DNA of 64,000 nucleotides. It comes from Eubacteriales bacterium (lineage in GTDB: Bacteria > Bacillota > Clostridia > Oscillospirales > CAG-272). Below, one piece after another: positions 7,095 through 61,413 of the stretch. The position numbers and the translations under genes are program-made. The notes under the pieces are model-generated. The model was not told the origin of the DNA, did no database searches, and saw nothing but the letters and a program-made list of their open reading frames with translations. The DNA is taken from positions 1,730-65,729 of the forward strand of contig JAZQWM010000009.1 in the NCBI GenBank assembly GCA_045632345.1, given 5' to 3'. How positions within the stretch are numbered: position 1 is the first letter of the stretch; each line of letters opens with the position of its first letter.

Positions 7095-7787
7095 ATGAAA
7101 ATGGGAAAGAAATATATCGCAAGTGCGGAACTCATTGAAGCTTCAAAGCTCTATGATCCAGCAGAAGCAATGAAATTAGTTTGCGAAACAGCAAAGGCTA
7201 AATTTGATGAAACTATCGAAGTTCACGTTCGTCTCGGCGTTGACTCACGTCACGCTGACCAACAGGTAAGAGGCGCAGTTGTTCTCCCACACGGTACAGG
7301 TAAGACAGTTCGTACACTTGTATTCGCTAAGGGCGACAAGGCAAAGGCTGCTCTTGATGCAGGCGCTGACTACGTTGGTGACGTTGACTACGTTGAAAAG
7401 ATTACAAAGGAAAACTGGTTTGAGTTCGACGTTGTAATCGCAACTCCTGATATGATGGGTGTTATCGGTCGTCTCGGTAAGGTTCTCGGTCCTAAGGGCC
7501 TTATGCCTAACCCAAAGGCTGGTACAGTTACAATGGATACTGCTAAGGCTGTTACAGAAGCTAAGGCTGGTAAGATTGAGTACCGTCTTGACAAGACAAA
7601 CATCATTCACTGTCCAATCGGTAAGGCTTCATTCGGCGTTGAAAAGCTTGGCGAAAACTTCGCTACTCTTCTCGGTGCTATTATCAAGGCTAAGCCAGCT
7701 GCTGCAAAGGGACAATACATTAAGAGCTGCACAGTAGCTTCTACAATGGGCCCTGGCATCAAGGTTAACTCAGCTAAGATTGGCTAA
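7095..7787 (+). CDS. rplA: 50S ribosomal protein L1
   Basis: 230 aa. [44 protein letters not shown] ggagg 9 nt upstream. Confidence 0.97.
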
Positions 7788-7797
7788 TTTATAAAAT

Positions 7798-7830
7798 TAA
7801 AATCCTCACAAGCTTGTGAGGATTTTTTAT
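7798..7830 (+). terminator. Rho-independent terminator after rplA
   Basis: aatcctcaca-agct-tgtgaggatt followed by a T-run. Confidence 0.85.
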
Positions 7831-7845
7831 TTGTCTTATAAAGTA

Positions 7846-7876
7846 AAATAAAGCGAGATACCTCGCTTTATTTTTA
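7846..7876 (-). terminator. Terminator after the 7884..8507 gene (bidirectional hairpin)
   Basis: aaagcgag-atac-ctcgcttt flanked by A-runs and T-runs. Confidence 0.7.
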
Positions 7877-7883
7877 TCCAATT

Positions 7884-8507
7884 TTAGATATTTGCGTTTG
7901 CTTCTCTCTTTTTCTTTAAGCCGTACTTAATAGCCACCACCATTTCATAAATGAAATATCCGTGAAGCGCTAAGTCAATTATGTACGTTGCATCTAAAGC
8001 TGTAATAGTGTCAACTAAAAGTAAAAGCGTATCGAATGCAAATAGCACCATAGCGCAAATTAGCCAGCCAACCTTTTTCTTTGAGAAAATCCAACAAATG
8101 ATATACGGTATAACACTAATAACACCTATTATAACGGTTGCAATTAAAATTGCTATATCTCCGTCTGCTTCTGCGTAGATATATCCGCCTGTCGCTCCTA
8201 TCATAAGAGTGATATATGAAGAAAAAAGAAAGTACGTTCCATTAAAAATTAATGAGAAAAGGTTCACTATTGATAATACTGTTACTATAAGTAATGAATA
8301 TCTTGCAACCTTATATTTTTGCTCGCCTATCTTTTCTGCAACGTTTTCCGGAGTTATAGCAGTCTCGTTTTGCGCTTCTTCTCCGCCATTTTCATTGGAT
8401 TTCTCTGACACAACATCGGTATATTCTTCTTTAGAAGATTTTCCTTCAATTGAATCTTCAAGCTCGTTTGCAACAGAATTTACGTTGTTTAACTCGTTAT
8501 TTTCCAT
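7884..8507 (-). CDS. Hypothetical membrane protein (acidic N-terminal region plus about 4 TM helices)
   Basis: 207-aa ORF with RBS aaggaga and flanking terminators. I recognise no family. Confidence 0.6.
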   Translation of the reverse strand: MENNELNNVNSVANELEDSIEGKSSKEEYTDVVSEKSNENGGEEAQNETAITPENVAEKIGEQKYKVARYSLLIVTVLSIVNLFSLIFNGTYFLFSSYITLMIGATGGYIYAEADGDIAILIATVIIGVISVIPYIICWIFSKKKVGWLICAMVLFAFDTLLLLVDTITALDATYIIDLALHGYFIYEMVVAIKYGLKKKREANANI

Positions 8508-8581
8508 TTTATTGTCTCCTTTCGCGAAATTTATAATAATTTGACATTACTCTGTCATTATATCACTTAAAATAAGATAAA

Positions 8582-9361
8582 TCAATATAACTTTTCTAAA
8601 AGCTTTATTGATTCCTGTCCCTCTTGAATTTCGCTTGCATTTTGAATAACAAATTCAAGCTGTTCCTTAGCTTTTTCAATTTCGTTTTCTAGTATGTATA
8701 TACGTGCAAGATTATAGGCATACGTTACTTTTAAAAGCTGACAATTAGCATTGAATTTTTCAAGGTGTGCTTTAGCCTGTTCAGCGTCATTTTTCATGAT
8801 AGCAATATCACTTGCGATACCAGATAAACGGCTAATGTTTTCTTCTTTGATTTTAGGATTTGTTATCATATCATTAAAGCCAAATGCTAAGTTATAATTC
8901 TCCTCCGCTTTTGCTGCATTATTTAATGCTGAATAAATTGCCGACAAGTTTAAATTGTACACAAAAAACACATGTGGGTGCTTAGGTGGAATTTTATTTA
9001 GGGCAACAGAAAGCATGATTTCAAGAGCTTTTTCTTGCGTTTCCATTTTTTGTGCTAATGCAGAAGCATAATTCATTTGGGTGATATAGCTTTTGGGGTT
9101 GTATTTATACATAAGCTCAGTATATTCGATATACTCTTTCGGTTTGCAAGTAATTTGATACTCCTTGATTATACTTTTTAATTTCCTATACGGAATTGAA
9201 TTAATTATTAAACCAAATAATAAGCTTACACTAATAAAAATTAGAATTATATATATTCGCCCTAATGTGCTGAAATATTCTGCTAGCGTTATAAAAACAC
9301 ATGCAATAATAATAAAAATCCACGTTAAAAGCTTACTATGTTTTACAATAAATTTATCCAT
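8582..9361 (-). CDS. Hypothetical membrane-anchored helical-repeat (TPR-like) protein
   Basis: 259-aa ORF with two N-terminal TM helices followed by helical-repeat-like sequence. Has its own TTGACA-17-TACAAT promoter. Confidence 0.6.
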   Translation of the reverse strand: MDKFIVKHSKLLTWIFIIIACVFITLAEYFSTLGRIYIILIFISVSLLFGLIINSIPYRKLKSIIKEYQITCKPKEYIEYTELMYKYNPKSYITQMNYASALAQKMETQEKALEIMLSVALNKIPPKHPHVFFVYNLNLSAIYSALNNAAKAEENYNLAFGFNDMITNPKIKEENISRLSGIASDIAIMKNDAEQAKAHLEKFNANCQLLKVTYAYNLARIYILENEIEKAKEQLEFVIQNASEIQEGQESIKLLEKLY

Positions 9362-24904: not shown

Positions 24905-26662
24905 TTATGCTGCTTGCCCTTCAATCTGAGCAAAGGTTAGCGTTTGTGGTGCTTTATCGCAATAGTCCTTAGCATCAGCACTTCCTACGTAGTAAAATTC
25001 GCCGTCATATACGTATGTGCACATTACAAGATTTAATGCTTTAAGGTTAATCTTGTCGCCTTCTTCATATGTCTTAAAGCCTGAGAGCTTAAAGTCAACG
25101 CCTGCGTATGTACTATCAACGCCAGCAATTACAGTATTATTAAGATTAGATGTTACTACACCCTCGTTATATGATAAAGCTAACGCTTCGCCTTCGTCGA
25201 TAATTGTTGCAACAACGCCGTATGCAATTGTTTTGTTGTTCGCTTTATTGTATTCATCAATTGCTACTAGGTTAAATGCATATCCTACGCAAAGCTCTGT
25301 ATTATCCTTATTTGTTGAGTAGCCTACAAATTCAAATAATGCTGCGGCTTCAAGAACGTCATCCTTGGAGCAGCCGTCATTTGTACAATATACGTGCTTT
25401 TCGCCCACTAAAACGTATGAAGTATATGAAATTTCAGTTGTTAAAGCGTGAACTGGGTTTTCAAGAGGCTTTACGTCCTCACATACTGAGCATTTTTCTA
25501 CACATGGGTTAGCTACGTAGTTATGGACTCCCTTATAGAATGCATCGCACTCGCTGTAATTATAAACGATAATGTTTTTGCCAAGTGACTCGGCATAGCC
25601 CTCATAGTTGATTGTTGGGTCGTATGCCATAAGCTCTGCTTTTGCAATTGTATCATTTGCCGTTGCTGCAATAAATTTATCCTGGGATGCCTTAGCTTCA
25701 TTATAAGTACCAGTAAAGAAGAATGTTACGTTCTTGCCTTGACCGAAAATATTATAGAATCCCTTTGATCCGGTTAACACATTAGCAAAAGTGGATGGTA
25801 AGTATATGTACTTTATGCTTGTTGTATTTAAAAACGTTTCGTAGTCAGCATTTGGACTTGTAAACGTTGTGAAGGATGCTCCGAAGTTTACTGTTTCAAG
25901 CTTAGCGCAATCGCAAAATGCCATTTTGCCAACTGTTGTAACTGTGTTAGGCAAAATAACCTCTGTAAGCTCATCACAATTATAGAATGCTGTTTGACCA
26001 ATTGAAGTTACACCTTCAGGAATTGTAATTGACGTAATACCTGTACCGGTAAACATTTGAGTGTTAATAGAGGTTACCGCAACAGGCCAATCAATGTGAA
26101 TATTAAGCTTTGGGCAACCGTTAAAGCCCGCATTGTTAATTTGAGTCATATGAGAAATATCTGAGATATACTCAAGATTTTTGCAGTTTGAGAATGCATT
26201 TTGAGCATGGATTCTCTTCAAATGAGTACCCCAACGCGCTTCTACTATTGTTGGGAAGTTTTCAAACTTTGCGGTGTTATGGTTAATTTCCTCAACATAT
26301 GTAGGAATTTGAATTCTCACAAGGCATTCCTTAATGCTATTAAATGTAACGCCCTCAGCTGCCATTGCGGTTTTTAGAGTGTTATTAAATCCACTTGGAT
26401 TGTAATAGACACTCATATTTACTACATAGTATGCAGGGAACACATAATACTTGCTTCCGTCTGTTAATACAACTCTTGACTCTCTGTCTGTGGCGGTGTT
26501 GCTTTCGCCGTATGCCGCTATGTCAAGTGTTGAAACGAGGCTTGCATCACAATCAAGACCTGGGTCAGAATCGAGTGGAATGATAGCTGCGCTTGCAGAA
26601 ATTGCAAATACGCATATGAGCATAGCAACCATAAGTGCTATGATAAAAATTTTCTTTTTCAT
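24905..26662 (-). CDS. Secreted BspA-type leucine-rich-repeat protein with Cys module and shared C-terminal domain
   Basis: 585 aa. Signal peptide MKKKIFIIALMVAMLICVFAISASA. LRR_5-like repeats (AFSNCKNLEYI, TSITIPEGVTSIGQTAFYNCDELTEV). The C-terminus is homologous to the C-termini of the three genes at 50303, 53412 and 56442. Confidence 0.85.
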   Translation of the reverse strand: MKKKIFIIALMVAMLICVFAISASAAIIPLDSDPGLDCDASLVSTLDIAAYGESNTATDRESRVVLTDGSKYYVFPAYYVVNMSVYYNPSGFNNTLKTAMAAEGVTFNSIKECLVRIQIPTYVEEINHNTAKFENFPTIVEARWGTHLKRIHAQNAFSNCKNLEYISDISHMTQINNAGFNGCPKLNIHIDWPVAVTSINTQMFTGTGITSITIPEGVTSIGQTAFYNCDELTEVILPNTVTTVGKMAFCDCAKLETVNFGASFTTFTSPNADYETFLNTTSIKYIYLPSTFANVLTGSKGFYNIFGQGKNVTFFFTGTYNEAKASQDKFIAATANDTIAKAELMAYDPTINYEGYAESLGKNIIVYNYSECDAFYKGVHNYVANPCVEKCSVCEDVKPLENPVHALTTEISYTSYVLVGEKHVYCTNDGCSKDDVLEAAALFEFVGYSTNKDNTELCVGYAFNLVAIDEYNKANNKTIAYGVVATIIDEGEALALSYNEGVVTSNLNNTVIAGVDSTYAGVDFKLSGFKTYEEGDKINLKALNLVMCTYVYDGEFYYVGSADAKDYCDKAPQTLTFAQIEGQAA

Positions 26663-34114: not shown

Positions 34115-34143
34115 ATTATACTACTGTAAAATTATAATGTCAA
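34115..34143 (-). promoter_or_regulatory. Promoter of the pheA-aro operon
   Basis: Gene-sense TTGACA-17-TATAAT. Confidence 0.65.
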
Positions 34144-34265: not shown

Positions 34266-36281
34266 TTAGCCTTCGTATGCATAGAAGCTTACAGTTGCAT
34301 CTGCAGAAGCTGTAATTGTTACGTTAGTAACGCCCTCGTTCTCGTAGAGATCGAAGAATGTCTCAGCAGAATTTACTGTGTATGTCTTGCTTTCTTCGCC
34401 ACATTCAACTACGATTGTGTACGTAGTATCAGCAGATGCGCTTGAAAGCTTGATAATGCCCTTAGAAATATCAATGCTATCTTCTGTTACAGCAAGGCTG
34501 TATGCTACGTTAGCTGTAAGTGTTGTTGGTTCAGCTGGATTTCCGTAGCCCTTGAGTTCCCATGAGAGTGATGTGTTCTCGTCGATAACGAGGTCGCCAT
34601 CCATGATTGGCTCATCCATGTATGTTGTTATATCTCTGTATGTAACGTTGCATACTGAACATACAAGACGACCGTCGATGTACTCAGTAAATGGATGCTC
34701 TGTTCTTCTTGTGAAGTCCTTTTGGCACTTTTCTGTACAATCAGCATCGTTTGTACATGCGTAGTATGTATAACCCACAGACGTACATGTTGGATTTACA
34801 ACCTCTTGTGTTAAAATCCATTTATCTTCGCCGTTAGCGCCTACACCGTGCTTAAGAAGTGGTTTTTCTTCTTCAGTATATGTTTGTCTCCACTCTGTGT
34901 TACAATCGCCACATTCCCAAATTGTGTACGCATTCTTAATACATGTTGTAGGAACGAATTCGATTGGATTTCCATCTGCATCAACTGTCTTGTTAATTGT
35001 TGCCTTATGTGGAACTGTTTTAACGTTTCTTTCTTCTCTACAGCCTAAAGTACATGTGGTTTCTGCTGTTGTACTTGTCTCACAAATTGTACACACATAG
35101 AGGTCATAACCATATGCATAGCACTTTGCATCGATAACAGCTGTTGGAGCTTCTGCAAATACGTGGTCAAGCTTTTCGCCTGAGTGTCTCTTTTCTGTTG
35201 CTGTACAAGCAGCATCAGTTGTACACTTGAATTCTTCATATGCAGCCTCGTGACATGTAGCTGCCTTTGAGCTGATTAGCTCATCTGTTACATAGTGAAC
35301 GCCTGTTGCAGGAATCGCTTTAACATAGCTATTGCCAGTATCAGGGTCAATCTCAACGTCAAGAATTTCACCACATTCAGGTCTCATACACTTAGGTGTA
35401 ATTGTACCTTCTGTGATACACGTTGGCTCTACTCTTGTGATGTAGTCAACGTTTTCGTAATCAACTAAGTGTCCATTAGCCCCATCGTGTTCACCAGGAA
35501 GAACGTTCTTCTCTGTACAGCCTGCGTTTAAGCACTCATAATAGTCGTAACCAGGAAGTGTACACGTTGGTCGGTTCCATTGAACGTTCTCTTCGTCCCA
35601 ATCGTGACCGAGAGCGTCAGCAGTTTTAACTGTCCATGTTTCATCACATACTGTACATTTAAAGTTGTCTGTACCCTCTGTTAAGCATGTAGCTGGGGAA
35701 GAACCTGTTTGAACTTCTGTGTGTGGGAGTTTTGGAATTTCATCAACCTTACCACGAGCACCACATGTCTTACAAACTTGTGATACTGAGCCAGGAGCCT
35801 TACATGTAGCTTCTACTGTAACCTGTTCGTAATCATGCGCCCATCTAACTAATTCGCCTGTGCCATCTTCCGCTTCGCCGCAGATTGAACATACAGTCTC
35901 CTCAATACCGTTTTGTTGCTTACCGCAATCAACCGGTGTTGTCATCTTTTTCTCGCTGAAATCATGGAACTCAGCGCTTGACTTAATTTCGTCTTTTGGT
36001 TCACTTTCAGCTCCACATACTGAACATACTTGGTATGTGTAACCGTTATGACGGCATGTTGGCGCTTTAACGATTTCTTCGCCAAACGCGTGAGGAAGTG
36101 CCGCAACTTCTCTTTCCTCTGATTCGCCACATTCACAAGCAAAAATTGCTTTACCTGCAGCTTCACATGTTGCCTCTGTAATAACCTCTGTTTGCTTAAA
36201 GTCATGCTCATGTCCGCATGAAACTAAAACAAATGTAAGAGCTAGTACAGCAAGTACTAATAACAATACTCTTTTTTTCAT
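34266..36281 (-). CDS. Lipoprotein built from about 12 tandem Cys3-His modules plus a C-terminal beta-rich domain
   Basis: 671 aa. Lipobox LVSC|G. Repeated H-x(8-20)-[TK]C-x(8-12)-C-x2-C-x(8-20)-H modules. Has its own TTGACT-17-TATAAT promoter and terminator. Confidence 0.82.
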   Translation of the reverse strand: MKKRVLLLVLAVLALTFVLVSCGHEHDFKQTEVITEATCEAAGKAIFACECGESEEREVAALPHAFGEEIVKAPTCRHNGYTYQVCSVCGAESEPKDEIKSSAEFHDFSEKKMTTPVDCGKQQNGIEETVCSICGEAEDGTGELVRWAHDYEQVTVEATCKAPGSVSQVCKTCGARGKVDEIPKLPHTEVQTGSSPATCLTEGTDNFKCTVCDETWTVKTADALGHDWDEENVQWNRPTCTLPGYDYYECLNAGCTEKNVLPGEHDGANGHLVDYENVDYITRVEPTCITEGTITPKCMRPECGEILDVEIDPDTGNSYVKAIPATGVHYVTDELISSKAATCHEAAYEEFKCTTDAACTATEKRHSGEKLDHVFAEAPTAVIDAKCYAYGYDLYVCTICETSTTAETTCTLGCREERNVKTVPHKATINKTVDADGNPIEFVPTTCIKNAYTIWECGDCNTEWRQTYTEEEKPLLKHGVGANGEDKWILTQEVVNPTCTSVGYTYYACTNDADCTEKCQKDFTRRTEHPFTEYIDGRLVCSVCNVTYRDITTYMDEPIMDGDLVIDENTSLSWELKGYGNPAEPTTLTANVAYSLAVTEDSIDISKGIIKLSSASADTTYTIVVECGEESKTYTVNSAETFFDLYENEGVTNVTITASADATVSFYAYEG

Positions 36282-50302: not shown

Positions 50303-53248
50303 TTATTCTGTTAGTGAGTTTATCGACACACCTGTTGGTAGGCTTGTTTGAGTAGCTTGTAGATATACTGTTGTATCTCCCTCAGTTAAGTAGATTGCCA
50401 TAACAACTGCTAGGTCTTTATTTGCATCGTTAAAGCCTGATACCTTCAAGTCAAAGCCACAGAATTTTCTGTCAAGCTCTGCTTTTTGAGTAAAGGATAC
50501 TATCTCGTTATCAAGAGGAGCTTTTCCGTTGAGCTTTTCTTCAAGCGATAATACAACGCCGTAGCTTACTGACGTTTGATTTAAAGCTTCATAAGCATCA
50601 ATGGCACTCTTATTTATCATAAAGCCCATTGTAATTTCAAGTCTGCCATCCTCTGGCATTGAGTAGCCTAGGAATAAGAATAGTGGATCGGCAGATGGTG
50701 CTTCCTCAATATATTCACTCTCGCACACGCTGCAAATACAGGTCTTTGTACCTGTAAATACAAATCCGTTTGCGTAAGAAACGCCGATTATTTCGCCTTC
50801 CTTATGACCTGTAATTGGTAATAGCTCGTAGGTGTACGTAATTTCCTCATAGTTATTGCTATTTGTTTTTTGGTTAGTAAACACCTTAACGGTTACCTCG
50901 CCCTCAACGAATTCTCCGCAAGGGCAGTCGCCCTTATAACCCTTAAAGCCCACCTCTGTACACGTATCAACAACCTTGGTTGCTTCAACTAGTGGATGCG
51001 GAATACCGTAAACAATTTTATATGCAGGATAGGTTACACCGTCAACGGTTTTAGATTCACAGTTACTGAATGCGCTTCCGTGTGTAATTGGAGCGTTTGT
51101 ATAAACGGTAATACCGTGGCTCTTATGGAATGCATCATTGCTAAGTGAAAGCTCTGTTGAGTGAATATAAATTTCCGCAGGTCCTGTTGTTGGGTCGTTA
51201 TCGTCTGCCCATTCGTACGAGTAGCAGAACGTCCAGCCTGCTGGGAATTTATTTACTTCCATTAAAACAGCCTTTTTGAGCTTATAGTTTCTATTAAACG
51301 GGTCGTTATCTAAGGAAGTTATTCCTCTGCCTACGTAGATATATTCTATATTGTTTTCCCAGAATGCACTACCTGTAAATTGAGGTCTTGAATAGTCAGG
51401 CAAAATAATTTCTTTAATGCCTGTACAGTTACCAAATGCTTTACCTGCAAGAACATAATCGCTGTTTGTTGAGAAGGTTACCCTCTCAATGCTTTTTACC
51501 ATGCTGAAAACTTCTGCTTCATAGGTAACGAACGCGCCTTCCTTATCGGAAAGAATATTTTTGATTGCGGTGTTTGCGCAGCCCTTTTTAAACGTTACGT
51601 TGGCAGCGCCAATATTGATGGTTTCAAGTGAGGATAATTGTGCAAAGCTATATACGTTGATTTTTGCACCGTCCTCAATATTTATTGTTCTTAATCTATA
51701 TGCACCAAATTCAAATCTAATTGCTGAAATACATGCAGGAACAGATACCTCGGCAACGTCATCTGATGAGAAATCTCCGTAATACTTAATGCCTGTGATT
51801 GTATATGAGTATGCGCCCTCTTCGCCTGATGCTTCAAGATGGAATATATCGGTAACGGGAACACTCATTTTCACTTCTCCGTCTGATGTGTAGAAAACAA
51901 CTTCAACGCTTATGAATGATGGGTCATAGGAATACTTTTTGTTTTCTATTTTTCCACAAGAGGAGCATTCATAGGTTTTAACTCCCGCTTCCGTTGGAGT
52001 GGCAGGAACGTCATTTATAACGCTGAAGCTATGAGGTGCTTTTCCCTCTGATTCAATATAGTATGAATGCTGACATAGTGAACACGTAAATTCTGTTCTG
52101 CCTGATGATATACAGGTTGCTGCATATTCAGACTTTTCATAATTATGGATACAGTCAATAGGTACTACTGTAACAAACACCGTATCACCGACCTTTTGGG
52201 ATACTGTCGTGTGTGTATCAAGTAATAGCTCCTTAAGAGCTTCCGTTTCTGCAAAATTCAAAACAAATGAGCCACCTGTTACGTTGAAGTAGTTAAGCTG
52301 TTCATTATTATATGAATTTGTATTAGCTGAGAAAATCGCTGCATTTTCCTCGATAAAGATAAACGAGCCGCCGCTGATATTAACGTTTATAATACCTACG
52401 TAGGTTGTTCCGCCTGTAAGTGAAGGTCCTGTTAAAACGATTTCGGCTCCCTCATAAACGTTAACGTTTGGTTGTCTTTCCAAGTCTCTATCCATGTGTA
52501 GCAGTCTATACGCGGTAACCTTACCGTAAATATCCATTGTTGGATATAGCTGTGTACCAATGGTGTTTGTATCGCAGCCAAGAATAGCGGTTGATGCTTC
52601 AACTACGATATCAGCGCCGATAAGTAAATAGTTATTATTTCCCGCATAAGTATGAGAGTGCATTCTAAAAAGGTGCGCGCCTAAGCCTGACGTATCGCTT
52701 GGCTCAAATATAATTTCGCCCTCTCCGTAAAATCTTCTGCCTGCTCTTTCCTGCTCAAAGCCACGGTTTGTGCCTTTGATTGTCAAGGAATGTCCATTCA
52801 TAAAGAAATTGGTAATGCCTTGGTTTTTTGTTGAAATGGTGCCGCTTTCTGATACTAAGTCATTCATAAGCTTTACTGCTGTACCGTTTGCAACGGCAGT
52901 TTTCATGGCTTCGATTGTATCAACCTCAAGTGCCTTAAACTGATAAAGAGGTGTATTCTTATCAAAGCTTACAACGTCTCCTGCGCTCCACGCTTTACCG
53001 TCAGGTGTTGCCCATACTAAGCAGTAGCCTGTATCTACTGTTTTTGTAGGGAGTGTAATTTTTTCTCCCTTAGCAACAACTTGCGTTCCCTCTGTTCCAA
53101 CAGTCTTATCCAAGGAAGTTGAGTTTATTCCCGTCATATAGGAAATTGTTATTTGCTCCTGCTCTGCAAAGGTATTAAATGCCAAAAGCATAGCTGAGCA
53201 AATTGTAACTGTTATTATCGCTAATATAAGCAATATTCTTTTTTTCAT
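50303..53248 (-). CDS. Giant secreted protein, paralog 1: Flg_new-like repeat, Cys3-His modules, BspA-type LRRs, shared C-terminal domain
   Basis: The ORF runs to 53272. I moved the start to ATG 53248 (taaggagaaaagctATG), giving 981 aa. Signal peptide MKKRILLILAIITVTICSAMLLAFNTFA. Confidence 0.88.
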   Translation of the reverse strand: MKKRILLILAIITVTICSAMLLAFNTFAEQEQITISYMTGINSTSLDKTVGTEGTQVVAKGEKITLPTKTVDTGYCLVWATPDGKAWSAGDVVSFDKNTPLYQFKALEVDTIEAMKTAVANGTAVKLMNDLVSESGTISTKNQGITNFFMNGHSLTIKGTNRGFEQERAGRRFYGEGEIIFEPSDTSGLGAHLFRMHSHTYAGNNNYLLIGADIVVEASTAILGCDTNTIGTQLYPTMDIYGKVTAYRLLHMDRDLERQPNVNVYEGAEIVLTGPSLTGGTTYVGIINVNISGGSFIFIEENAAIFSANTNSYNNEQLNYFNVTGGSFVLNFAETEALKELLLDTHTTVSQKVGDTVFVTVVPIDCIHNYEKSEYAATCISSGRTEFTCSLCQHSYYIESEGKAPHSFSVINDVPATPTEAGVKTYECSSCGKIENKKYSYDPSFISVEVVFYTSDGEVKMSVPVTDIFHLEASGEEGAYSYTITGIKYYGDFSSDDVAEVSVPACISAIRFEFGAYRLRTINIEDGAKINVYSFAQLSSLETINIGAANVTFKKGCANTAIKNILSDKEGAFVTYEAEVFSMVKSIERVTFSTNSDYVLAGKAFGNCTGIKEIILPDYSRPQFTGSAFWENNIEYIYVGRGITSLDNDPFNRNYKLKKAVLMEVNKFPAGWTFCYSYEWADDNDPTTGPAEIYIHSTELSLSNDAFHKSHGITVYTNAPITHGSAFSNCESKTVDGVTYPAYKIVYGIPHPLVEATKVVDTCTEVGFKGYKGDCPCGEFVEGEVTVKVFTNQKTNSNNYEEITYTYELLPITGHKEGEIIGVSYANGFVFTGTKTCICSVCESEYIEEAPSADPLFLFLGYSMPEDGRLEITMGFMINKSAIDAYEALNQTSVSYGVVLSLEEKLNGKAPLDNEIVSFTQKAELDRKFCGFDLKVSGFNDANKDLAVVMAIYLTEGDTTVYLQATQTSLPTGVSINSLTE

Positions 53249-53282
53249 AGCTTTTCTCCTTAATATATACAATTACAATAAA

Positions 53283-53311
53283 ATTTTATCATATTTAGTT
53301 ATAATTGTCAA
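53283..53311 (-). promoter_or_regulatory. Promoter of giant paralog 1
   Basis: Gene-sense TTGACA-17-TAAAAT with TGa extended -10. Confidence 0.6.
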
Positions 53312-53373
53312 TAAATCGAGCGATATATATGCGTTTTTGGCAACAATGCACAAAACAATATTTTTATTTTTAT

Positions 53374-53406
53374 GCAAAAAAGCAAGAGGCTTAGCCTCTT
53401 GCTTTT
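53374..53406 (-). terminator. Terminator after giant paralog 2 (GCAAGAGG stem family)
   Basis: agcaagaggc-tta-gcctcttgct flanked by A6 and T4. Confidence 0.8.
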
Positions 53407-53411
53407 CTATT

Positions 53412-56288
53412 TTAGGATAATGAGTTTATTGATACCCCTGTTGGTAGGTTGGTTTGAGTATCTTGCAGATATACCGTTGTATCTCCATCGGTTACGTAGA
53501 TTGCCATAACGACTGCTAAATCCTTAATATTATCGTTAAAGCCTGAAATCTTTAAGTCAAAGCCACAGAGTTTTCTGTCAAGCTCTGTCTTTTGAGTATA
53601 TGATGCCACCTCGCTATCGAGAGGAGCTTTACCGTTAAGATTGTTTTCAAGGGCTAATACAACGCCGTAATTGAAGGTATTTCCAGATAATTCTTCGTAG
53701 GTATCAATTACTTTATTGTTAATCATAAAGCCCATTGTGATTTCAAGTCTGCCATCCTCAGGCATTGAGTAGCCTAAGAATACAAATAATGGGGCAGCAC
53801 TTGGCACAAGCTCTGTGTATTCCTCGTTACAAACGCGACAAATACAATCCTTTAAGCCCTCAAGCATGTAGCCATTGAGATAGTCAACGTAAACAATATC
53901 ACCCTCAAAGTGTCCTGTTGCAGGAATTACGGTTGAATAATATACTTTATCTACAAAGTTTTCGCTATTAGTAAGAGCTGCTGTAAAGGTTCTTGCAGTT
54001 ACTTCTCCGTCTAATTGAACACCGCAAGGACAATCAGTCTTATATCCGTTTACGCCGTTTTCTGTACATGTTGGCTCCTCGTATGCTTCAACGAGCTTAT
54101 GAGGAATACCGTACACAATGGTATATGCAGGATAGTACACGTCGTTTTTAGTTACTTCGGTACAGCCATTGAATGCACTTCCGTTTGTAATAGGCGCATT
54201 TGTGTAAATGGTAACGCCATGACATTGATAGAACGTATTGTTTGGAAGTGAGAGTGAATCTGAGTGAATGTAAACCTCAACAGGCTTTTCTGCAGTATTT
54301 TCAACACAGAAGGTATATTCTTGGATTATTTTAACAACGTCCATAAGAACGATTTTCTCAACGTTTTGGCAATAGTCAAACGCTTTACCATCAAGATATT
54401 TTATTCCTCTACCTAAATAGATATATTTGAGTGAAGTGCACTTATAGAACGGAGGATCCATTTTAAACGTTACATCTGAATAGTCAGGGGCTATAAACTC
54501 TGTTATACCTACTCCTCTAAAGCTATTGCTTCCAAATACGTACTTACTGTAAGAGCTAAGCTTTAATTCTGTAATAGATGATCTACCGTCAAATACCTGT
54601 GTGTCAAAGGTTATGTCTGCTCCCTGCACCTCTGATTTAATAGAGAATATTACTTTATTAGTACAGCCCTTAACAAATTTTACAGTTGATGCGCCAATTT
54701 CAATATGAGTTAACGCTTTACAATTTGCAAAGCTGCTAACAGTTACATTTGCTCCGTCGATTATTACGAGCTTTTGAAGCGTTGTGTTTTCTGATGCAAA
54801 ATTTATATCAGCTATGCCCACAGGAACGTTGATAGCTACTATATTTGCTACTGTATAGCCGCCAAAGTCCTTTAAGCCAACTAGCTTATATTGATTATTG
54901 CCCATGCTTTCTAAGTTGAATACGTCGCTTACCTTTACAGATACTTCTTCTTCAATTTCGTCTGTTTTTACGGTAACCTTTACTTCCTTTTCAGCTACGT
55001 CGTCATAATAGATTTCGCTTTTTGTATCAAAGCAAACCTTACACTCATAGCTCTTTACGCCCGCTGACGTATAGGTAGGTTGCTTATCATCTACTAATTT
55101 CCAGTCATGGTCTGCATAATCCCCATATACAACGGTATAAGTGTGATTGCATTTTGAACAGGTATAAGTTTTATCTGCAAGCGCAATACAAGTTGCATTA
55201 ATCTCACTGGTAACTGCGTAAGTATGAGCGCATTCGCTCTCTTCTACAACGATATAGTAGGTTGCTCCGCCAAGCTCAAGTGGTTGAATTTTATATCCTA
55301 AAGCGATATATTCTTCAACTTTTTCTCCAAAAGCCACGTTAAACGTGCCGCCGGATATTGATATAATTTGACGATCGCCATATGATACGGTATCGTTATT
55401 ATTCCAATAGTCTGTTCCGCTTGCATTTTCAGCTAATTTAATATATCCGTCGGTTACTGTTATGCGAACCTTACCGTTTCCTGCGGCATCATAAGTTCCG
55501 ATCGTAAATAGCGCGTCTCCTGTTACGGTTAAATCTTTAGCGTTGATTTTAATGTCAAGCTCATGGTTAAGAGTAGATATATAAGCGATTTTTGCGCAAG
55601 AGGCTTTACCAAAAATATGAATTGGAATTACGCTATTATTGCCGTTAGTGTAATGTAATAACGTTCCTTTTGTTGATATAGTAACATCCTTACCAACGAT
55701 AAGTCTTTGGTTTCCGTCGCCGAAGCCGTGTGAAGAAGCATTAAAGAAATTGCCTGTTCCTGTGTGGATAACGGAACCTTCGCCTACAAGTATAACACCT
55801 GCTCTTTGCTCTTCAAACAAATTTTTTGCTGATGAGGTAATTGAGTAGCCGTTTAAATCAAAGATTACTCTACCGCCCCAAGGTGGCGCGATTCTAGACT
55901 CTAAAACGATATCCTCTTGAAGACGTACAAAGATTTGGTCCCATTGGCTGTTACCCTGTGTAGCACCTTGGTACTTAATGCTTTCGTTTGTTCCGTCATA
56001 TCCGTACGCCTCATACAAATCAAGGTCGCTTGTTAACGTAACTACTTCGCCAACATCGTAAACATCACCCTCTACATTATACCAGCCAAAAAGTGTTTTT
56101 CCACTTTGGTTAGTATAGCCTGTGCTTTTTATGGTAATTTGTCCGTTTGCATCAGTTGTGGCCGTTTCCTTTACAGAACCCCATATATCACGGTAGGTTA
56201 CCAAGTATTCTTCAGCGCATACTGATATTGCGAAAATAAAAGCAAAAACGAATATTAGTGAAATAAATATAAGTATTTTCTTTTTCAT
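53412..56288 (-). CDS. Giant secreted protein, paralog 2 (same architecture)
   Basis: 958 aa. Signal peptide MKKKILIFISLIFVFAFIFAISVCA. The C-terminal ~126 aa are close to paralog 1 (PLF(L/V)FLGYSMPEDGRLEITMGFMIN). Confidence 0.88.
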   Translation of the reverse strand: MKKKILIFISLIFVFAFIFAISVCAEEYLVTYRDIWGSVKETATTDANGQITIKSTGYTNQSGKTLFGWYNVEGDVYDVGEVVTLTSDLDLYEAYGYDGTNESIKYQGATQGNSQWDQIFVRLQEDIVLESRIAPPWGGRVIFDLNGYSITSSAKNLFEEQRAGVILVGEGSVIHTGTGNFFNASSHGFGDGNQRLIVGKDVTISTKGTLLHYTNGNNSVIPIHIFGKASCAKIAYISTLNHELDIKINAKDLTVTGDALFTIGTYDAAGNGKVRITVTDGYIKLAENASGTDYWNNNDTVSYGDRQIISISGGTFNVAFGEKVEEYIALGYKIQPLELGGATYYIVVEESECAHTYAVTSEINATCIALADKTYTCSKCNHTYTVVYGDYADHDWKLVDDKQPTYTSAGVKSYECKVCFDTKSEIYYDDVAEKEVKVTVKTDEIEEEVSVKVSDVFNLESMGNNQYKLVGLKDFGGYTVANIVAINVPVGIADINFASENTTLQKLVIIDGANVTVSSFANCKALTHIEIGASTVKFVKGCTNKVIFSIKSEVQGADITFDTQVFDGRSSITELKLSSYSKYVFGSNSFRGVGITEFIAPDYSDVTFKMDPPFYKCTSLKYIYLGRGIKYLDGKAFDYCQNVEKIVLMDVVKIIQEYTFCVENTAEKPVEVYIHSDSLSLPNNTFYQCHGVTIYTNAPITNGSAFNGCTEVTKNDVYYPAYTIVYGIPHKLVEAYEEPTCTENGVNGYKTDCPCGVQLDGEVTARTFTAALTNSENFVDKVYYSTVIPATGHFEGDIVYVDYLNGYMLEGLKDCICRVCNEEYTELVPSAAPLFVFLGYSMPEDGRLEITMGFMINNKVIDTYEELSGNTFNYGVVLALENNLNGKAPLDSEVASYTQKTELDRKLCGFDLKISGFNDNIKDLAVVMAIYVTDGDTTVYLQDTQTNLPTGVSINSLS

Positions 56289-56323
56289 TTTCAGTTCTCC
56301 TTATAATATATTGTTACGATTTA

Positions 56324-56352
56324 AGTTTACCATATTTTGTTCTATTTGTCAA
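56324..56352 (-). promoter_or_regulatory. Promoter of giant paralog 2
   Basis: Gene-sense TTGACA-17-TAAACT with TGg extended -10. Confidence 0.6.
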
Positions 56353-56394
56353 TAATCTCATAATTTTCAAATTGTTTTTATTCAATTTGCACAA

Positions 56395-56427
56395 ACAAAA
56401 AAGCAAGAGGTTGCCCTCTTGCTTTTT
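56395..56427 (-). terminator. Terminator after giant paralog 3 (GCAAGAGG stem family)
   Basis: gcaagagg-ttgc-cctcttgc flanked by A-runs and T-runs. Confidence 0.8.
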
Positions 56428-56441
56428 CATTAAGATTTGAA

Positions 56442-59400
56442 TTATTCTACCGGTGTTTCTTCTTCCTTTGGTTCTTCCGCAGGTGGATTTACAGGAGCTT
56501 CACTTCCAAGATATTTGTTAATTGAAATTGAAGCCGGTAAATCTGTTTGAGTATCTTGTAGATATACCAAGCTATCGCCCTCAGCTACGTATGCAGCCAT
56601 AACAAGCTCTAAATCATAAAGCTCAGTTGTAAAGCCTGAAACAACAAAGTCAAATGATAAAAACTCCTTAGGTACAGTTGTCTTAACCACAGCCACATTC
56701 TCAAGCGTTTCATCAAATGGAGCCTTGCCATCAAGAGCGTTAGCTAATGCAAAAGCAACGCCGTAGCTTATCGAAGTTTCTGCCACTGATTCATATTCTG
56801 CGATTGCTTCCTTATTTACAATATAGCCAATGCTCATTTGGAGTCTTCCGTCCTCAGGCATTGAGTAGCCATTAAAGATGAATAATGCTGCTGCATCCTT
56901 TTCTACTGTATGCTCAACGTTACATCTTGTACAGATGTATGATACTGCGCCCTTTTCAAGATAGCTTACGTATGCGATGTTTGTCTTTTCGCCAAGCTTA
57001 TCGTGTCCTAAAGGAGCGATTTCTGTTACAGTGAATGTAACTGCCTCATCAACTGCTGTATCAGCTGTGATATTGTGCTTCTTTTCATACTTATTGATTA
57101 CTGTTGTTTCAGTAAAGTACGTTTCAGAGCCACATGGACACTTTGTGATATCTACAATCCAAGTATTTAAGCCGATATTTACACAGTCAGGGTCAACAAC
57201 GTGGTTTGTAAGTGGATGAGCAAGACCGAGATATACTGTCCAAGCCTTAAAGCCGTTTGTATCGCCACAGTTTGCAAATACTTCGCCGCTTGTGCCGATA
57301 TTGTCTGTTATTGTATATACGAAGATACCGTCGCACTCCTTAAATAAGCCCTTATTGAATACAAAGTCAAGTGAGTGGTTATAAACATAGAAAGGTGTTG
57401 CGTAGTTGCTTGAGCCAGCGTATTCAAATTCATATTCGCTTGTGTGTGTAACACCTTCCATGATATAAAGTGTTTCAAGCGCTTTAAGGTTTCTAAATGG
57501 ATAGTTTTTAATCTCAATATTCTTACCGATATAGAGAGTTACAGCCTTATCACATTCCTTAAATGCATCAACGCCTGTGAATTCTACATTTATGTTATCT
57601 TCAAATGTGATTGAAGCGAAGTCAGCATAACGGAATGCTTCTCTACCAATCTTAAATGTGGATGTATTTGAGAATACGACGTCGTTTGTTGGTGATGTGC
57701 TTCTGAATGCATAGTCGCCGATTGTGTAGGTTGAGTTTTCACCAAATGCAAGATATGTTACTGTGCTTCTGCCGTCAAATGCCTGTGAGCCAAATGTTGC
57801 GGTTACATTATTTGCGGTAAAGTCAAGCGTATTAATTGCTGAACAATCACGGAAGCAGTAGTATCCAAAATCATATGTAGAATTTGCACCGAATTTTACC
57901 TCGGTAAGCTTTGCGTTCTTAAAGCACTCTTGACCGAATGTATATGTGGAGTTTTCGCCGCTTACATCAAGTGATGTAATTGCGCTCTTTCCGTTAAATA
58001 CATGGTTAGCAACTATAACTGTTAAGTTATTTGCACTTGCATCAATCCTTTGAAGATTATTTGTTGAGCTGTAGCAGTTGCTATTAAAGTTATAGGTTGA
58101 GCCTTCTCCAAGTGTTAATTCAGTAAAAATAGAGTTTCTGAACGCTTCGCTATTGAATGTATATGTGCCGTTTTTACCGTTGATTAAAAGCGTCTGAAGT
58201 GTGTTCTTACCGAATCCGTACGCATTTACTGTTACATTTAAGCTGTCTGCGCTTGCATCAATCTTAGCTATTGGAGTTGAACCATTAAAGCAGTTATTGA
58301 ATACGTAGGTTGAGCCTTTACCGAGTGTTACCTCTGCAATCTTTGTATCAACAAACGCGCTACCGTTAAAGGTATATGTGGAGTTTTCGCCGTTAATCTT
58401 TAAGGTATCAAACGCTGTATGTCCCTTAAACGCCTCTCCTTCAATCAATAATGTAATTCCGCTTGCGCTTGCATCAAGAGCTTTGAAGGATGATTTATTT
58501 GGAGTACCGTTTATGCAGTATCTCTTGAATGTGTATGATGAATTCGGTGCTAAAACAAACTCTGTAAATAATGCATCATTAAATGTGCCTTCGCTAATTA
58601 CATATGTTGAATTTTCACCAAATTTAAGTGTTGTGATAGCACCTGTTTGCTTGTTGTCTAACCATGAGTTAAAGGCACTATTGTTCATAGTTACAGTCAT
58701 ATTGCCTGCACTCATATCAATTTCTTCAAGTATTGTGTTTGTAAATGCTTGTTGACCTATTGTGTAGCTGCTGTTTGGCGCTAACACAACCTTTGGAATT
58801 GGGCAATATGTAAAGCATCTTGATCCTATGCTATACGTTGCATTTTCGCCGAATTTTACGCTTGTAAGTGTTTTACAGTTTTCAAACATTCTATACATTA
58901 AATCAAAGCTTACTCCATCAGGGAAAACAAGCTCTGTCATATCGTTTCCGTAGAAGTTTTGTTCGCCTGAGAATGTATATGTGTTTGTTGCAGGGAATTT
59001 TAATTCTGTAATTGTACAGTTATAGAATGCATATGACTTAATATCGTAAGTTGAATTTTCGCCAAAAATAAGATTTGTTAACGCGCCTCTTCCATTAAAT
59101 GCACTTGGCATAAAGGTTACCGTATGATTGCCCGCGCTTAAGTCGATTGTAGCAATCTTTTGCATGTCGCGTCTTTCGTTGTTTGGACTATAGTAGCTAC
59201 AGCTTGCGCAGAATACTACATTAGCATTTTTGCCTACTGTAATCTTTTCAACCTTTCTTAGGTTACCGATATTTTGAAACTCAACCTTTGCGCCTTCTGC
59301 GATATTAAGCTCAGCTACGCCGTATTCTACATTATTATATTTTTCGTAGTTGTGAGTTGTGATGTAGATATACATAATTCCCTTAGGAATTGTAATACCG

Positions 59401-61349
59401 TAAATGTTTCTAATCTTATAGTCGCCAAATGCTTTAACTGCGGAAAGAGTATAAACATAGTCTCCATCTGAGCCTGATGTAGCAAAGTCGAAAACCTCGC
59501 TTGCCTTAACAGTGATTTCCTCAAATGTGCCATCATCAAGTCTAATCTTAACTAAAATGTCAAGGTTAGATGGATCAAGGTTGTATGGAGATGTTTTTGA
59601 CATACCACACATTGAGCACGCGTATGATTTTGAACCAAGGGATGTAAGTGTTGCTTCGATGTGCTCACCTAAAACAAGGTTGTGGTTAAGCTTTTCGCCC
59701 CATGTGAAGTATACATTATGACCGCACTCTGTACAGTTATAGTCTGCATATGCAGCGTGGCTACATGTAGCATCTGTTGGTTCGCCACTGAATGTGTGCT
59801 CACATGCTGCAGGAACAACTACTTGGAATGTTGTGTTGTCTGCTACAAGATTTTGAAGCTTATAGTCAACTGATGTAGTAGCGTTCTTAAATAAGAAGAA
59901 GTTAGCACCTTGAACCATTACGAAATCATCTGTTAATTTATCGTATGTTGTAGTTGTTGTGCCATCGCCGTTATCTACTACTGTTGCTTCGTAAATAAGT
60001 AATGTTTCAATAGCGTTGCCATCAGCGTTCTTTGTTGATGTGTATCTATACTCTGTTTTGTTGCCTGCGAAGTCAGTTACAACGAGCTTTGCAGGATTTG
60101 TTCCATCGTACTTGCTGAATACGAGCTTGTATGCAGCCTTGTTGTAGTATGGAACATAGTATGTTGAGTCGTTATTGTTTGTAACAAGACCATTACCGCC
60201 ATCGTGAATCATATTAACATAATCTTCTGTTAAAAATGATGAAATAGCAGGAACCTTATTGTCAGGAAGAACGAATGAACCGCCTGAAATCTTGATTGAG
60301 TCTCTATTTGTATCTGTAACCTCATATGGTGAGTATGTTGCAGATCCTACAACAAATTCCTCAAGGTATTCATCTGACCAGAATGAAAGGTTTTCAGCCT
60401 CTGCAGGTAAGTAGAATGTACCACCGTAAATTCTTATTTGAATAGCGTGGCTGTTGAAGTAGTATTGCGTATTTGATGATTTGTAATAGCACTGATATAA
60501 TGCAGGACCATTAATTTTAACTACTGCGTTTTCATAAATTTCAAAAACTTGAGTTCTGGTTGGGCCTGTGCTTGTTACCATAAGACCGTAAACATCAATC
60601 TTACCGTAAATTCTGATCCAAGGATAGTGTGGGTTAGTGCCATCCCAGTCCTGTGTGAGCCAGAAGTCAGGAGCGTTAATTGTAACATCGCGACCAACAA
60701 CGGATTTGTTCTTTGTACCATTATAGCCGTGACCTTGGCTATTGATTACATAGTATGAGCCAACCTTACCATCTGTGCTTGTTACATTTAATGTACCTTC
60801 ACCTAAGATTTGCTTACCCGAACGCTGATTACCGATAATATCACCGTTTCTTGTCATATCGATAGTGTGGCCATTTAAGATAAGTGCGGACATATCCTGG
60901 TCCCTAACATCAATACCAACGGTGGTTATGATATCAGCCATTAAGATAGCGGCAATGCTTTCGTTTGTCATAGCATAGTTAACTTCTGTAATTGTGTAAC
61001 ATTCCTTAGCTACGCATCTGAAAAGCTTTGTGTCCTTATCGAATGATACGGTCTCTCCCGCTTTATATGTGCGACCGTCTTCTGTGTAGAATACAAGCTG
61101 GAAGCCATCTTGTCCTACATATGAGTTGTCGGCAGTTAATGGAAGCGTAAATTCTTCTCCTGCCTTTACTGTTTGTTTACCGCCTGCATATGCAACTGTA
61201 TCAAGAGTGGTTGTAGTACTTGTTGTATCTTGAGACTTTACATATGAAACGGTAATGTCCTTTGCTTCTGCTTCGTTTGCAATTGCTACAACGCCAAGAA
61301 CTAAAATAGCAACTAAAACGAAAATCAAAGCAATTAAACTCTTTTTCAT
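56442..61349 (-). CDS. Giant secreted protein, paralog 3, with an expanded LRR array
   Basis: The ORF runs to 61394. I moved the start to ATG 61349 (aaaggagaaaccaaaATG), giving 1635 aa. Signal peptide MKKSLIALIFVLVAILVLGVVAIANEAEA. Confidence 0.88.
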   Translation of the reverse strand: MKKSLIALIFVLVAILVLGVVAIANEAEAKDITVSYVKSQDTTSTTTTLDTVAYAGGKQTVKAGEEFTLPLTADNSYVGQDGFQLVFYTEDGRTYKAGETVSFDKDTKLFRCVAKECYTITEVNYAMTNESIAAILMADIITTVGIDVRDQDMSALILNGHTIDMTRNGDIIGNQRSGKQILGEGTLNVTSTDGKVGSYYVINSQGHGYNGTKNKSVVGRDVTINAPDFWLTQDWDGTNPHYPWIRIYGKIDVYGLMVTSTGPTRTQVFEIYENAVVKINGPALYQCYYKSSNTQYYFNSHAIQIRIYGGTFYLPAEAENLSFWSDEYLEEFVVGSATYSPYEVTDTNRDSIKISGGSFVLPDNKVPAISSFLTEDYVNMIHDGGNGLVTNNNDSTYYVPYYNKAAYKLVFSKYDGTNPAKLVVTDFAGNKTEYRYTSTKNADGNAIETLLIYEATVVDNGDGTTTTTYDKLTDDFVMVQGANFFLFKNATTSVDYKLQNLVADNTTFQVVVPAACEHTFSGEPTDATCSHAAYADYNCTECGHNVYFTWGEKLNHNLVLGEHIEATLTSLGSKSYACSMCGMSKTSPYNLDPSNLDILVKIRLDDGTFEEITVKASEVFDFATSGSDGDYVYTLSAVKAFGDYKIRNIYGITIPKGIMYIYITTHNYEKYNNVEYGVAELNIAEGAKVEFQNIGNLRKVEKITVGKNANVVFCASCSYYSPNNERRDMQKIATIDLSAGNHTVTFMPSAFNGRGALTNLIFGENSTYDIKSYAFYNCTITELKFPATNTYTFSGEQNFYGNDMTELVFPDGVSFDLMYRMFENCKTLTSVKFGENATYSIGSRCFTYCPIPKVVLAPNSSYTIGQQAFTNTILEEIDMSAGNMTVTMNNSAFNSWLDNKQTGAITTLKFGENSTYVISEGTFNDALFTEFVLAPNSSYTFKRYCINGTPNKSSFKALDASASGITLLIEGEAFKGHTAFDTLKINGENSTYTFNGSAFVDTKIAEVTLGKGSTYVFNNCFNGSTPIAKIDASADSLNVTVNAYGFGKNTLQTLLINGKNGTYTFNSEAFRNSIFTELTLGEGSTYNFNSNCYSSTNNLQRIDASANNLTVIVANHVFNGKSAITSLDVSGENSTYTFGQECFKNAKLTEVKFGANSTYDFGYYCFRDCSAINTLDFTANNVTATFGSQAFDGRSTVTYLAFGENSTYTIGDYAFRSTSPTNDVVFSNTSTFKIGREAFRYADFASITFEDNINVEFTGVDAFKECDKAVTLYIGKNIEIKNYPFRNLKALETLYIMEGVTHTSEYEFEYAGSSNYATPFYVYNHSLDFVFNKGLFKECDGIFVYTITDNIGTSGEVFANCGDTNGFKAWTVYLGLAHPLTNHVVDPDCVNIGLNTWIVDITKCPCGSETYFTETTVINKYEKKHNITADTAVDEAVTFTVTEIAPLGHDKLGEKTNIAYVSYLEKGAVSYICTRCNVEHTVEKDAAALFIFNGYSMPEDGRLQMSIGYIVNKEAIAEYESVAETSISYGVAFALANALDGKAPFDETLENVAVVKTTVPKEFLSFDFVVSGFTTELYDLELVMAAYVAEGDSLVYLQDTQTDLPASISINKYLGSEAPVNPPAEEPKEEETPVE
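57465..59162 (-). repeat. Coding super-repeat: about 72-aa units, each of three ~24-aa BspA-type LRRs, in giant paralog 3
   Basis: G(E/K)N(S/A/G)TY anchors at ORF aa 778, 849, 926, 1002, 1073, 1146 and 1218. ID(A/L/M)SA anchors at aa 750, 892, 973, 1045, 1117 and 1190. Confidence 0.85.
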
Positions 61350-61384
61350 TTTGGTTTCTCCTTTAAGATATATAATATATATTA

Positions 61385-61413
61385 ATGATATCACATATTG
61401 TGTAATATGTCAA
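61385..61413 (-). promoter_or_regulatory. Promoter of giant paralog 3
   Basis: Gene-sense TTGACA-17-TATCAT with TGa extended -10. Confidence 0.6.

Follow-up and report, generated by a model that had tools for sequence, protein, structure and literature searches.

The 671-aa lipoprotein and its repeats

The window, by which we mean the whole 64,000-nucleotide stretch of Eubacteriales DNA analysed here (assembly GCA_045632345.1, contig JAZQWM010000009.1, positions 1,730 to 65,729), carries on its minus strand a complete open reading frame (ORF) for a predicted lipoprotein of 671 aa. About 80% of this protein is a tandem array of Cys3-His modules of some 40 aa each, followed by a C-terminal domain of a different kind (Table 1). 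The product contains 40 Cys (6.0%) and 17 His. Its N-terminus, MKKRVLLLVLAVLALTFVLVSC followed by G, is that of a typical Gram-positive lipoprotein signal, with an MKKR n-region, a VLLLVLAVLALTFV h-region and an LVSC lipobox as scored against [LVI][ASTVI][GAS]C. A preliminary description of this DNA had already called the product a lipoprotein, in agreement with the invariance of Ser21 and Cys22 in all 24 aligned orthologs.

We refer to the three Cys of a module in order as C1, C2 and C3, the last two forming a knuckle. Anchoring on C-x9-C gave 11 matches, corresponding to ten modules and one overlap inside module 9, while the module that brings the count to eleven has C-x11-C instead (C119/C131/C134). 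A terminal half module without C1 (H529...C541-x2-C544) follows the last full one. A hidden Markov model (HMM) of the module also finds 11 modules, with independent E-values from 5.5e-14 to 2.7e-6, far beyond chance; this detection model was rebuilt from 269 database proteins, which are mostly unrelated to the 671-aa protein yet include its orthologs. The preliminary description had counted about 12 units between roughly nt 34626 and 36215, very nearly the array as we delimit it, and the unit that it quoted as an example is residues 149-187. The Cys/His repeat that it wrote as a pattern is likewise real, except that the gap between C2 and C3, given there as two residues, ranges from one to five in this protein.

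Identity between modules of the 671-aa protein is only 23-43%, and Tandem Repeats Finder detected no DNA-level tandem repeat in the ORF. The repeats are thus old and have been maintained by selection, and a recent expansion of a DNA repeat was rejected as their origin.

Table 1. Features of the lipoprotein gene and of related modules in the window, with the ligands predicted for each metal site
Feature	Residues or ligands	Position in window	Strand	Basis
Complete ORF, predicted 671-aa lipoprotein with 12-site Cys/His module array and C-terminal domain		34266..36281	minus	24 full-length orthologs, 87-32% identity
Signal peptide and lipobox	1-22 (LVS-C22)	36216..36281	minus	S21 and C22 invariant in alignment A1; AF2 helix at residues 3-19
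Module array, 11 full modules and terminal half module	24-556	34614..36212	minus	C-x9-C anchoring and HMM
Predicted sites 1-4	H24/H26/C49/C51; C39/H64/C86/C89; C76/H106/C131/C134; C119/H149/C170/C173			
Predicted sites 5-8	C160/H187/C209/C212; C199/H226/C250/C255; C240/H271/C298/C303; C288/H329/C353/C359			
Predicted sites 9-12	C343/H373/C397/C400; C387/H425/C457/C460; C447/H478/C509/C515; C499/H529/C541/C544			
C-terminal non-repeat domain, Cys-poor	557-671 (115 aa), ending ...YEG	34269..34613	minus	AF2-predicted all-beta, ~10 strands
Promoter-like site TTGACT-17-TATAAT (11/12), upstream of start codon		36319..36347	minus	Consensus scan only
Terminator-like hairpin and T run, directly after stop codon		34225..34253	minus	Consensus scan only
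Module pair in 989-aa LRR_5 protein, second module without C1	374-445; N-cap C374-x-H376	51938..52153	minus	
Module pair in 958-aa LRR_5 protein, second module without C1	353-424; N-cap C353-x-H355	55017..55232	minus	
Module pair in 1650-aa LRR_5 protein, second module without C1	531-601; N-cap C531-x-H533	59592..59804	minus	
Degenerate, doubtful module pair in 585-aa LRR_5 protein	372-437	25352..25549	minus	By eye; HMM E=0.014

Conservation among orthologs

Orthologs that align over their full length were found down to about 30% identity, and the 24 in our alignment span 87-32%. They come from metagenome-assembled genomes of uncultured gut Clostridia/Eubacteriales recovered from human faeces, goat caecum and water-deer caecum. 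The preliminary description had staked its reading on the Cys and His positions being conserved in homologs, and they are: 44 of the 48 predicted ligand positions are kept in every one of the 24 orthologs and the remaining four in 22 or 23 of them. In two orthologs a Cys takes the place of H26. Five other Cys and His residues (C519, C627, H78, H265 and H366) are kept in only 4-10 of the 24. The number of modules is the same in all 24 proteins, and all 12 sites are present in each.

Three further residues of the 671-aa protein, H344, C410 and C414, are kept in 23 of the 24 orthologs. H344 adjoins C343, and the two Cys belong to a stretch inserted behind the knuckle of module 9; in a single divergent ortholog (P0024) all three are altered together with C400. 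This trio may supply three candidate ligands of a thirteenth metal site at the junction of modules 8 and 9.

Which ligands share a site

The register of the ligands was tested on 6,889 HMM-aligned modules from the 269 proteins. In this family profile the His is present in 100% of modules, C1 in 93%, C2 in 100% and C3 in 98%, with a period of 37-44 aa, and positions at the module surface are highly variable apart from the ligands, Gly19 and Thr14. At the end of an array, C1 is Cys in 34% of modules without a following knuckle, compared with 95.5% of the others (nominal p=4e-158). At the start, 49% of the array-initial modules have a His (53 cases) or a Cys (50 cases) two residues ahead of the module His, compared with 2.7% elsewhere (nominal p=3e-86). 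Absence of C1 from an internal module goes with an extra ligand in the module after it, in what looks like compensation: a His inside the knuckle loop (34.6% versus 2.2%) or a Cys or His cap (18.7% versus 0.6%). Finally, array-final modules without C1 tend also to lack the trailing His, a co-loss with an odds ratio of 11 (nominal p=4e-18). The 671-aa protein obeys the same capping rules, with its H24-x-H26 cap at the start and its C1-less half module at the end.

Predicted structures place the ligands along the module. The AlphaFold 2 (AF2) model of the whole protein has a mean predicted local distance difference test score (pLDDT) of 82, and most modules in it consist of three short strands. 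The His precedes beta1; C1 is found in the loop from beta1 to beta2, C2 at the end of beta2 and C3 at the start of the turn into beta3; the next His comes after beta3. A model of the di-module at residues 149-226 reached pLDDT 94.7 and a predicted template-modelling score (pTM) of 0.65; its confidence peaks at the complete junction and has its minimum (89) at the knuckle that has no partner C1. Because C1 and C2 flank a seven-residue strand and sit at opposite ends of the module, they cannot share one ion within it. Strand topology would instead put C1 and the next His together at one end of the module, beside the knuckle of the module that follows.

Each four-ligand site is accordingly drawn here, as a prediction, across two modules: module n-1 contributes C1, the junction contributes its His, and module n adds its C-x(1-5)-C knuckle. 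The preliminary description had likened the spacing of Cys and His to zinc-ribbon or knuckle ligands. The positions do behave as metal ligands, although the set that belongs together straddles two modules and is not the H...C...CxxC...H of a single one. The interchange of Cys and His at the fourth position points to a metal site and not to disulfides, and the bound metal is most likely Zn(II).

Relation to an IgA protease and to other known systems

The preliminary description knew of no characterised function for the unit, a statement that has been overtaken. Homologous domains, ZBD1 and ZBD2, were described in 2025 as putative structural-zinc, rod-like spacers in the Thomasclavelia ramosa IgA protease (IgAse or ThomasA, UniProt Q9AES2, construct PDB 9QA6), where they correspond to CTD2 and CTD4 and the term "metal-associated periscope domain" is used (PMC12237041, PMC12415215). 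The ZBDs of this protease appear in AI models as elongated, at ~110 Å per three subdomains, each subdomain a three-stranded up-and-down sheet, with putative zinc sites of tetrahedral geometry (His2Cys2 or Cys3His) where the subdomains meet (PMC12237041). CTD2 is a fully extended rod by small-angle X-ray scattering (SAXS), and a role as molecular spacer has been proposed; structures and models contain no disulfides despite 24 Cys (PMC12237041, PMC12415215).

PDB sequence searches with the 671-aa protein or with a profile of its orthologs returned no match. The canonical multi-module protein P0150 retrieved one PDB entry, 9qa6_A "IgA protease", at E=5.4e-6, and profile A4, built from 49 modules of which the first is from the window, retrieved the same chain from the PDB sequences at E=3.4e-12 over three stretches in ZBD1 and ZBD2. 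Our local family HMM matched the IgA protease at 9.7e-9 and 5.8e-6, and the 671-aa protein matches that HMM at E=2e-79. By these profile comparisons the module is homologous to ZBD1/ZBD2. AF2 secondary structure gives most modules the three-stranded subdomain of an IgAse-type periscope domain, and the caps, compensation and co-loss, as sequence statistics, put the ligand sets at the subdomain interfaces. A Foldseek search with the di-module model did not retrieve 9qa6 (best PDB match E=0.45), consistent with the absence of the ZBDs from the deposited coordinates, and the full 671-aa model gave only meaningless long alignments with TM below 0.12.

The two systems share three-stranded subdomains, predicted Cys/His sites at the interfaces, and an elongated rod, itself a prediction for the lipoprotein, on a Gram-positive surface protein. 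They differ in arrangement: IgAse has two or three partly degenerate subdomains per domain, set between other domains of a sortase-anchored protease, whereas the lipoprotein has 12 consecutive canonical Cys3His sites filling most of a lipid-anchored protein. Zinc is only predicted here, as it is in IgAse. The 671-aa protein is an extreme, almost pure example of a module already noticed in one protease in 2025, and cannot be called categorically new. The preliminary description had named a match to a characterised repeat family as the outcome that would count against it, and this has come about by half: a literature name exists alongside a zinc that is only putative, and there is no curated family. 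The apparent novelty lies in how large the family is, in the canonical Cys3His form of the module, in the capped register of shared ligands, and in the lack of any curated model. The accessible text of PMC12237041 and PMC12415215 reports neither a large tandem-repeat family, nor its size, nor capping rules.

The remaining weak fold, sequence and Pfam matches are to zinc ribbons, rubredoxins and zinc fingers, and the likeness is at the level of the knuckle only. Classical zinc ribbons and rubredoxin knuckles (the TFIIS C-terminal domain, the NrdR N-terminus, Rpp21) resemble the module in having an antiparallel three-stranded sheet, a beta-turn that holds the CxxC(G) knuckle, and tetrahedral coordination by Cys/His, and the PLoS Pathog authors describe IgAse subdomain I as distantly resembling the TFIIS zinc domain (PMC12237041). 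A zinc ribbon, however, has two CxxC-type knuckles per domain, while the module has one, complemented by the linker His and by C1 of the previous module. The module is also extracellular and tandem, unlike the classical ribbon, and in our searches no zinc-ribbon Pfam model reached threshold and no solved zinc-ribbon fold was matched.

Periscope proteins and the stalks of fibrillar adhesins (SasG/Aap G5-E, SHIRT and Rib; PMC8201768, PMC9704523) are likewise core-poor, single-sheet tandem rods, and they hold a functional domain away from the surface of a Gram-positive cell. Their repeats are nearly identical at the DNA level and variable in number, whereas those of the 671-aa protein are diverged and fixed in number across the 24 orthologs. 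Zinc in Aap brings about dimerisation through surface sites of His and acidic residues; in the module it would form intramolecular Cys/His staples. EGF-like and other eukaryotic disulfide-rich mini-modules offer a further parallel, which the PLoS Pathog authors also draw (PMC12237041), in that they are small, extracellular, without a hydrophobic core, cross-linked, and strung into rods. Their cross-links are disulfides within a module, and that of the present module is a predicted metal site between neighbours.

A large, uncurated family

A profile of the 11 modules of the window matched 25,116 representative proteins at E<=1e-3 in a search space of 1.84 billion cluster representatives at 50% identity; 10,257 of these were at 1e-10 or below and 1,463 at 1e-30 or below. 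Single proteins contain up to 83 matched stretches, and the module proteins include giants of 3,000-7,500 aa. The named sources are all Clostridia (Oscillospiraceae, Ruminococcus, Eubacterium ramulus, Monoglobus pectinilyticus, Butyrivibrio proteoclasticus, Faecousia). By a crude heuristic, 233 of the 265 Met-starting module proteins have a signal-like N-terminus, and the domains that accompany the module are SLH, Big_2, Flg_new, LRR_5, fn3, transglutaminase core and dockerin. Signal-like N-termini and surface partner domains together indicate that the extracytoplasmic setting noted in the preliminary description is general in the family.

No model that covers the module came out of Pfam-A and NCBIfam scans, which took in the 671-aa protein, its 24 orthologs and a diverse set of seven multi-module proteins; the matches were only sub-threshold or spurious ones of zinc-finger type. 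In the source annotations these proteins are "hypothetical protein" or bear the name of a partner domain, and a keyword search of the literature on Cys-rich, zinc-ribbon or extracellular repeats found nothing relevant. In P0265, residues 662-696, Pfam A24_N_bact (the N-terminal zinc domain of prepilin peptidase) scores 36.5 bits against a cut-off of 23 on a module junction, "...HNYVDGVCTACG...APCTH..."; P0038 likewise carries a precomputed PF06750, and zf-CHY comes close to threshold on P0211. The A24_N_bact and zf-CHY matches look like false positives caused by the uncurated module.

The module also occurs on unannotated human-faecal contigs labelled as phage, among them a 113.9-kb "Bacteriophage sp." contig (L012, MT835476.1) at 5641..7887, and two BFVD models, A0A8S5QLF9 and A0A8S5SUG5, named for an SLH domain and for leucine-rich repeats (LRRs), superpose on the di-module with TM 0.58-0.65. 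These may belong to phages proper or to host DNA that was sorted into viral bins. On Monoglobus pectinilyticus "plasmid 12" (L010, NZ_OY725736.1), a multi-module "hypothetical protein" at 2957..8754 lies directly upstream of an SLH-domain protein, and both genes are just downstream of MobC, relaxase and PcfB genes, a mobile-element context.

What the array might do

We think it fairly probable that this lipid-anchored surface protein of uncultured gut Clostridia (Eubacteriales) is a zinc-stapled rod of 12 modules that serves as a spacer of fixed length. An N-terminal lipid would anchor the protein, and twelve small modules, each a three-stranded up-and-down beta-sheet, would be joined end to end. 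A structural metal site of tetrahedral geometry, with Zn(II) as the most likely metal, would lock each junction; the preceding module would supply C1, the linker the His, and the following module its two knuckle Cys. The first site, having no preceding module, would be completed by the H-x-H cap (H24/H26), and C1 of the last full module would be taken up by the terminal half module through H529, C541 and C544. The metal would replace the disulfides of EGF-like modules, stabilising mini-domains that lack a core and stiffening their joints; as a strict anaerobe cannot rely on extracellular disulfides, a metal makes sense as the cross-link. Such a rod would hold the beta-rich C-terminal domain tens of nm from the membrane, roughly across the cell wall. 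Extrapolation from the published ~37 Å per subdomain suggests a length of ~40 nm, close to how thick the wall of a Gram-positive cell is.

Several considerations weigh against this picture of a stapled spacer. The spacer role is put forward by analogy, and the C-terminal domain, proposed as the projected end, is without detectable relatives. The p-values for the caps and for co-loss are inflated, as paralogous repeats and related proteins were counted as independent, although the effects are large; a third of the modules scored as array-final keep C1, and our definition of "last" may miss degenerate followers. The assignment of ligands to sites comes from sequence statistics and strand topology rather than from ligand distances, and the exact geometry may differ from that drawn. 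Signal-like N-termini were counted heuristically, as noted. The link to IgAse is transitive by way of the family profile, since the window-only profile A2 does not reach the protease by itself (E=9.4). The zinc of IgAse is itself "putative, pending experimental validation", and SAXS supports the rod shape of CTD2 only (PMC12237041, PMC12415215). The IgAse sites are moreover mostly His2Cys2, as against Cys3His in the lipoprotein.

The modules might instead be repeated adhesive units that bind glycans or proteins of the host or its diet, with metal sites that are still structural, and we regard this as unlikely but worth weighing. Partners of adhesin type (LRR_5/BspA, Flg_new, Big_2, SLH) accompany the module, some proteins such as P0150 consist of almost nothing else, and the PNAS authors leave other roles for CTD2 and CTD4 open (PMC12415215). 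Against adhesion stand the variability of the module surface and the low identity between modules of one protein, both given above. The ZBDs of IgAse are dispensable for catalysis, and the separate, conserved C-terminal domain of the lipoprotein is a better candidate for a binding end.

Twelve predicted metal sites on a lipoprotein could also suggest a store or capture device for metal at the cell surface, comparable to Pht lipoproteins or zincophores, or an extension regulated by zinc. We judge this improbable. A fully coordinated Cys3His set is typical of tight structural zinc and not of exchangeable sites. Pneumococcal histidine-triad (Pht) proteins resemble the 671-aa protein in being surface lipoproteins with several repeated zinc-binding motifs, but they use HxxHxH triads for zinc acquisition, whereas the 671-aa protein is rich in Cys with ligands of structural type. 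HxxHxH does not occur in it, and a triad protein of Pht type was rejected on that ground. The adjacent genes are tilS-ftsH and pheA-aro instead of zinc-uptake genes, and giant proteins of adhesin-like type carry the same modules, with as many as 83 matched stretches.

A Cys-rich repeat stabilised by disulfides, with no metal, is in our estimate quite improbable. Extracellular Cys-rich repeats elsewhere are usually disulfide-bonded, and CxxC motifs are able to form disulfides. Each module, however, has three Cys and an invariant His, the fourth position and the caps can be taken by either residue, and a full strand separates C1 from C2. The hosts are gut anaerobes, and the absence of disulfides from the IgAse structures and models argues in the same direction.

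Least credible of all is an extracellular electron conduit of redox-active, rubredoxin-like iron sites, which the resemblance of the knuckle to rubredoxin CxxCG and the presence of rubredoxins among the weak PDB sequence matches might bring to mind: the modules are spaced far beyond electron-tunnelling range, each site has one knuckle and a ligand set of Cys3His or His2Cys2, and no respiratory genes lie nearby. The sites would be one module apart, at the ~110 Å per three subdomains of the published IgAse model. The 671-aa protein also contains no CxxCH haem-binding motif, and a haem protein was rejected for that reason.

Returning to the zinc-stapled rod, we would give about even chances to a broader proposal: that the IgAse ZBD is a degenerate outlier of a very large, uncurated Clostridial family of extracellular repeats (at least 25,116 clusters), that the canonical array forms a single metal-dependent rod of fixed length with N-cap (C/H-x-H) and C-cap (C1-less) modules, and that zinc in place of disulfides is a general strategy. 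If so, the integrity of these rods could depend on the availability of zinc in the gut. If the junctions do bind zinc, the module, with its tens of thousands of clusters, would be among the commonest building blocks of Clostridial surface proteins. A curated model that includes the capping rules would provide annotation for a large slice of the "dark" surface proteins of the gut microbiome, and would also clear away the spurious zinc-finger and A24_N_bact matches. The lipoprotein, as a nearly pure array of fixed length with one small terminal domain, would allow cleaner tests than the IgA protease does of questions raised by the 2025 papers, namely zinc binding, rigidification of the rod, and control of surface display by zinc.

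Module pairs in the LRR_5 proteins

Four BspA-type LRR_5 surface proteins of 989, 958, 1650 and 585 aa are encoded on the minus strand of the window, at 50303..61394 and 24905..26662. The preliminary description had noticed the unit in pairs in the giant paralogs, and the HMM bears this out, with full-sequence E-values of 5.9e-15 for the 958-aa protein, 4.4e-13 for the 989-aa protein and 3.9e-9 for the 1650-aa protein. Each of these three also holds an additional, more degenerate second pair. The capped pairs seem to be connectors between other regions of these proteins. The unit that had been reported from the 585-aa protein is weakly supported; it is a degenerate pair recognised by eye (Table 1). 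The 1650-aa ORF opens at GTG as listed, and its true start is probably an internal one (MKKSLIAL...) 15 codons downstream.

The C-terminal domain, flanking signals and neighbouring genes

AF2 pLDDT is 81-93 across most of the C-terminal domain of the 671-aa protein. The domain has no match in Pfam, NCBIfam or the PDB, and a sequence search with it alone returned one fragment and no informative match. The very end of the protein (...YAYEG; 34269..34280, minus) is nearly invariant in the orthologs, with E670 and G671 each at 90% or more. Such conservation is unusual for a free tail, and the end of the protein may mark a site for recognition or processing.

Promoter-like and terminator-like sites of its own seem to flank the gene (Table 1). 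Upstream of it lie tilS-ftsH and downstream pheA-aroB-aroC-aroE/K-aroQ-aroA, a placement that is kept in three P0001 loci, and the ORF sizes at two more distant loci fit the same order. This neighbourhood, conserved at orthologous loci, offers no functional link to the lipoprotein. At 34115..34143 (minus), upstream of a pheA-like gene, the window contains a full 12/12 sigma-70 consensus, TTGACA-17-TATAAT; in the orthologous loci the pheA-like gene stands at the head of the run of shikimate-pathway genes.

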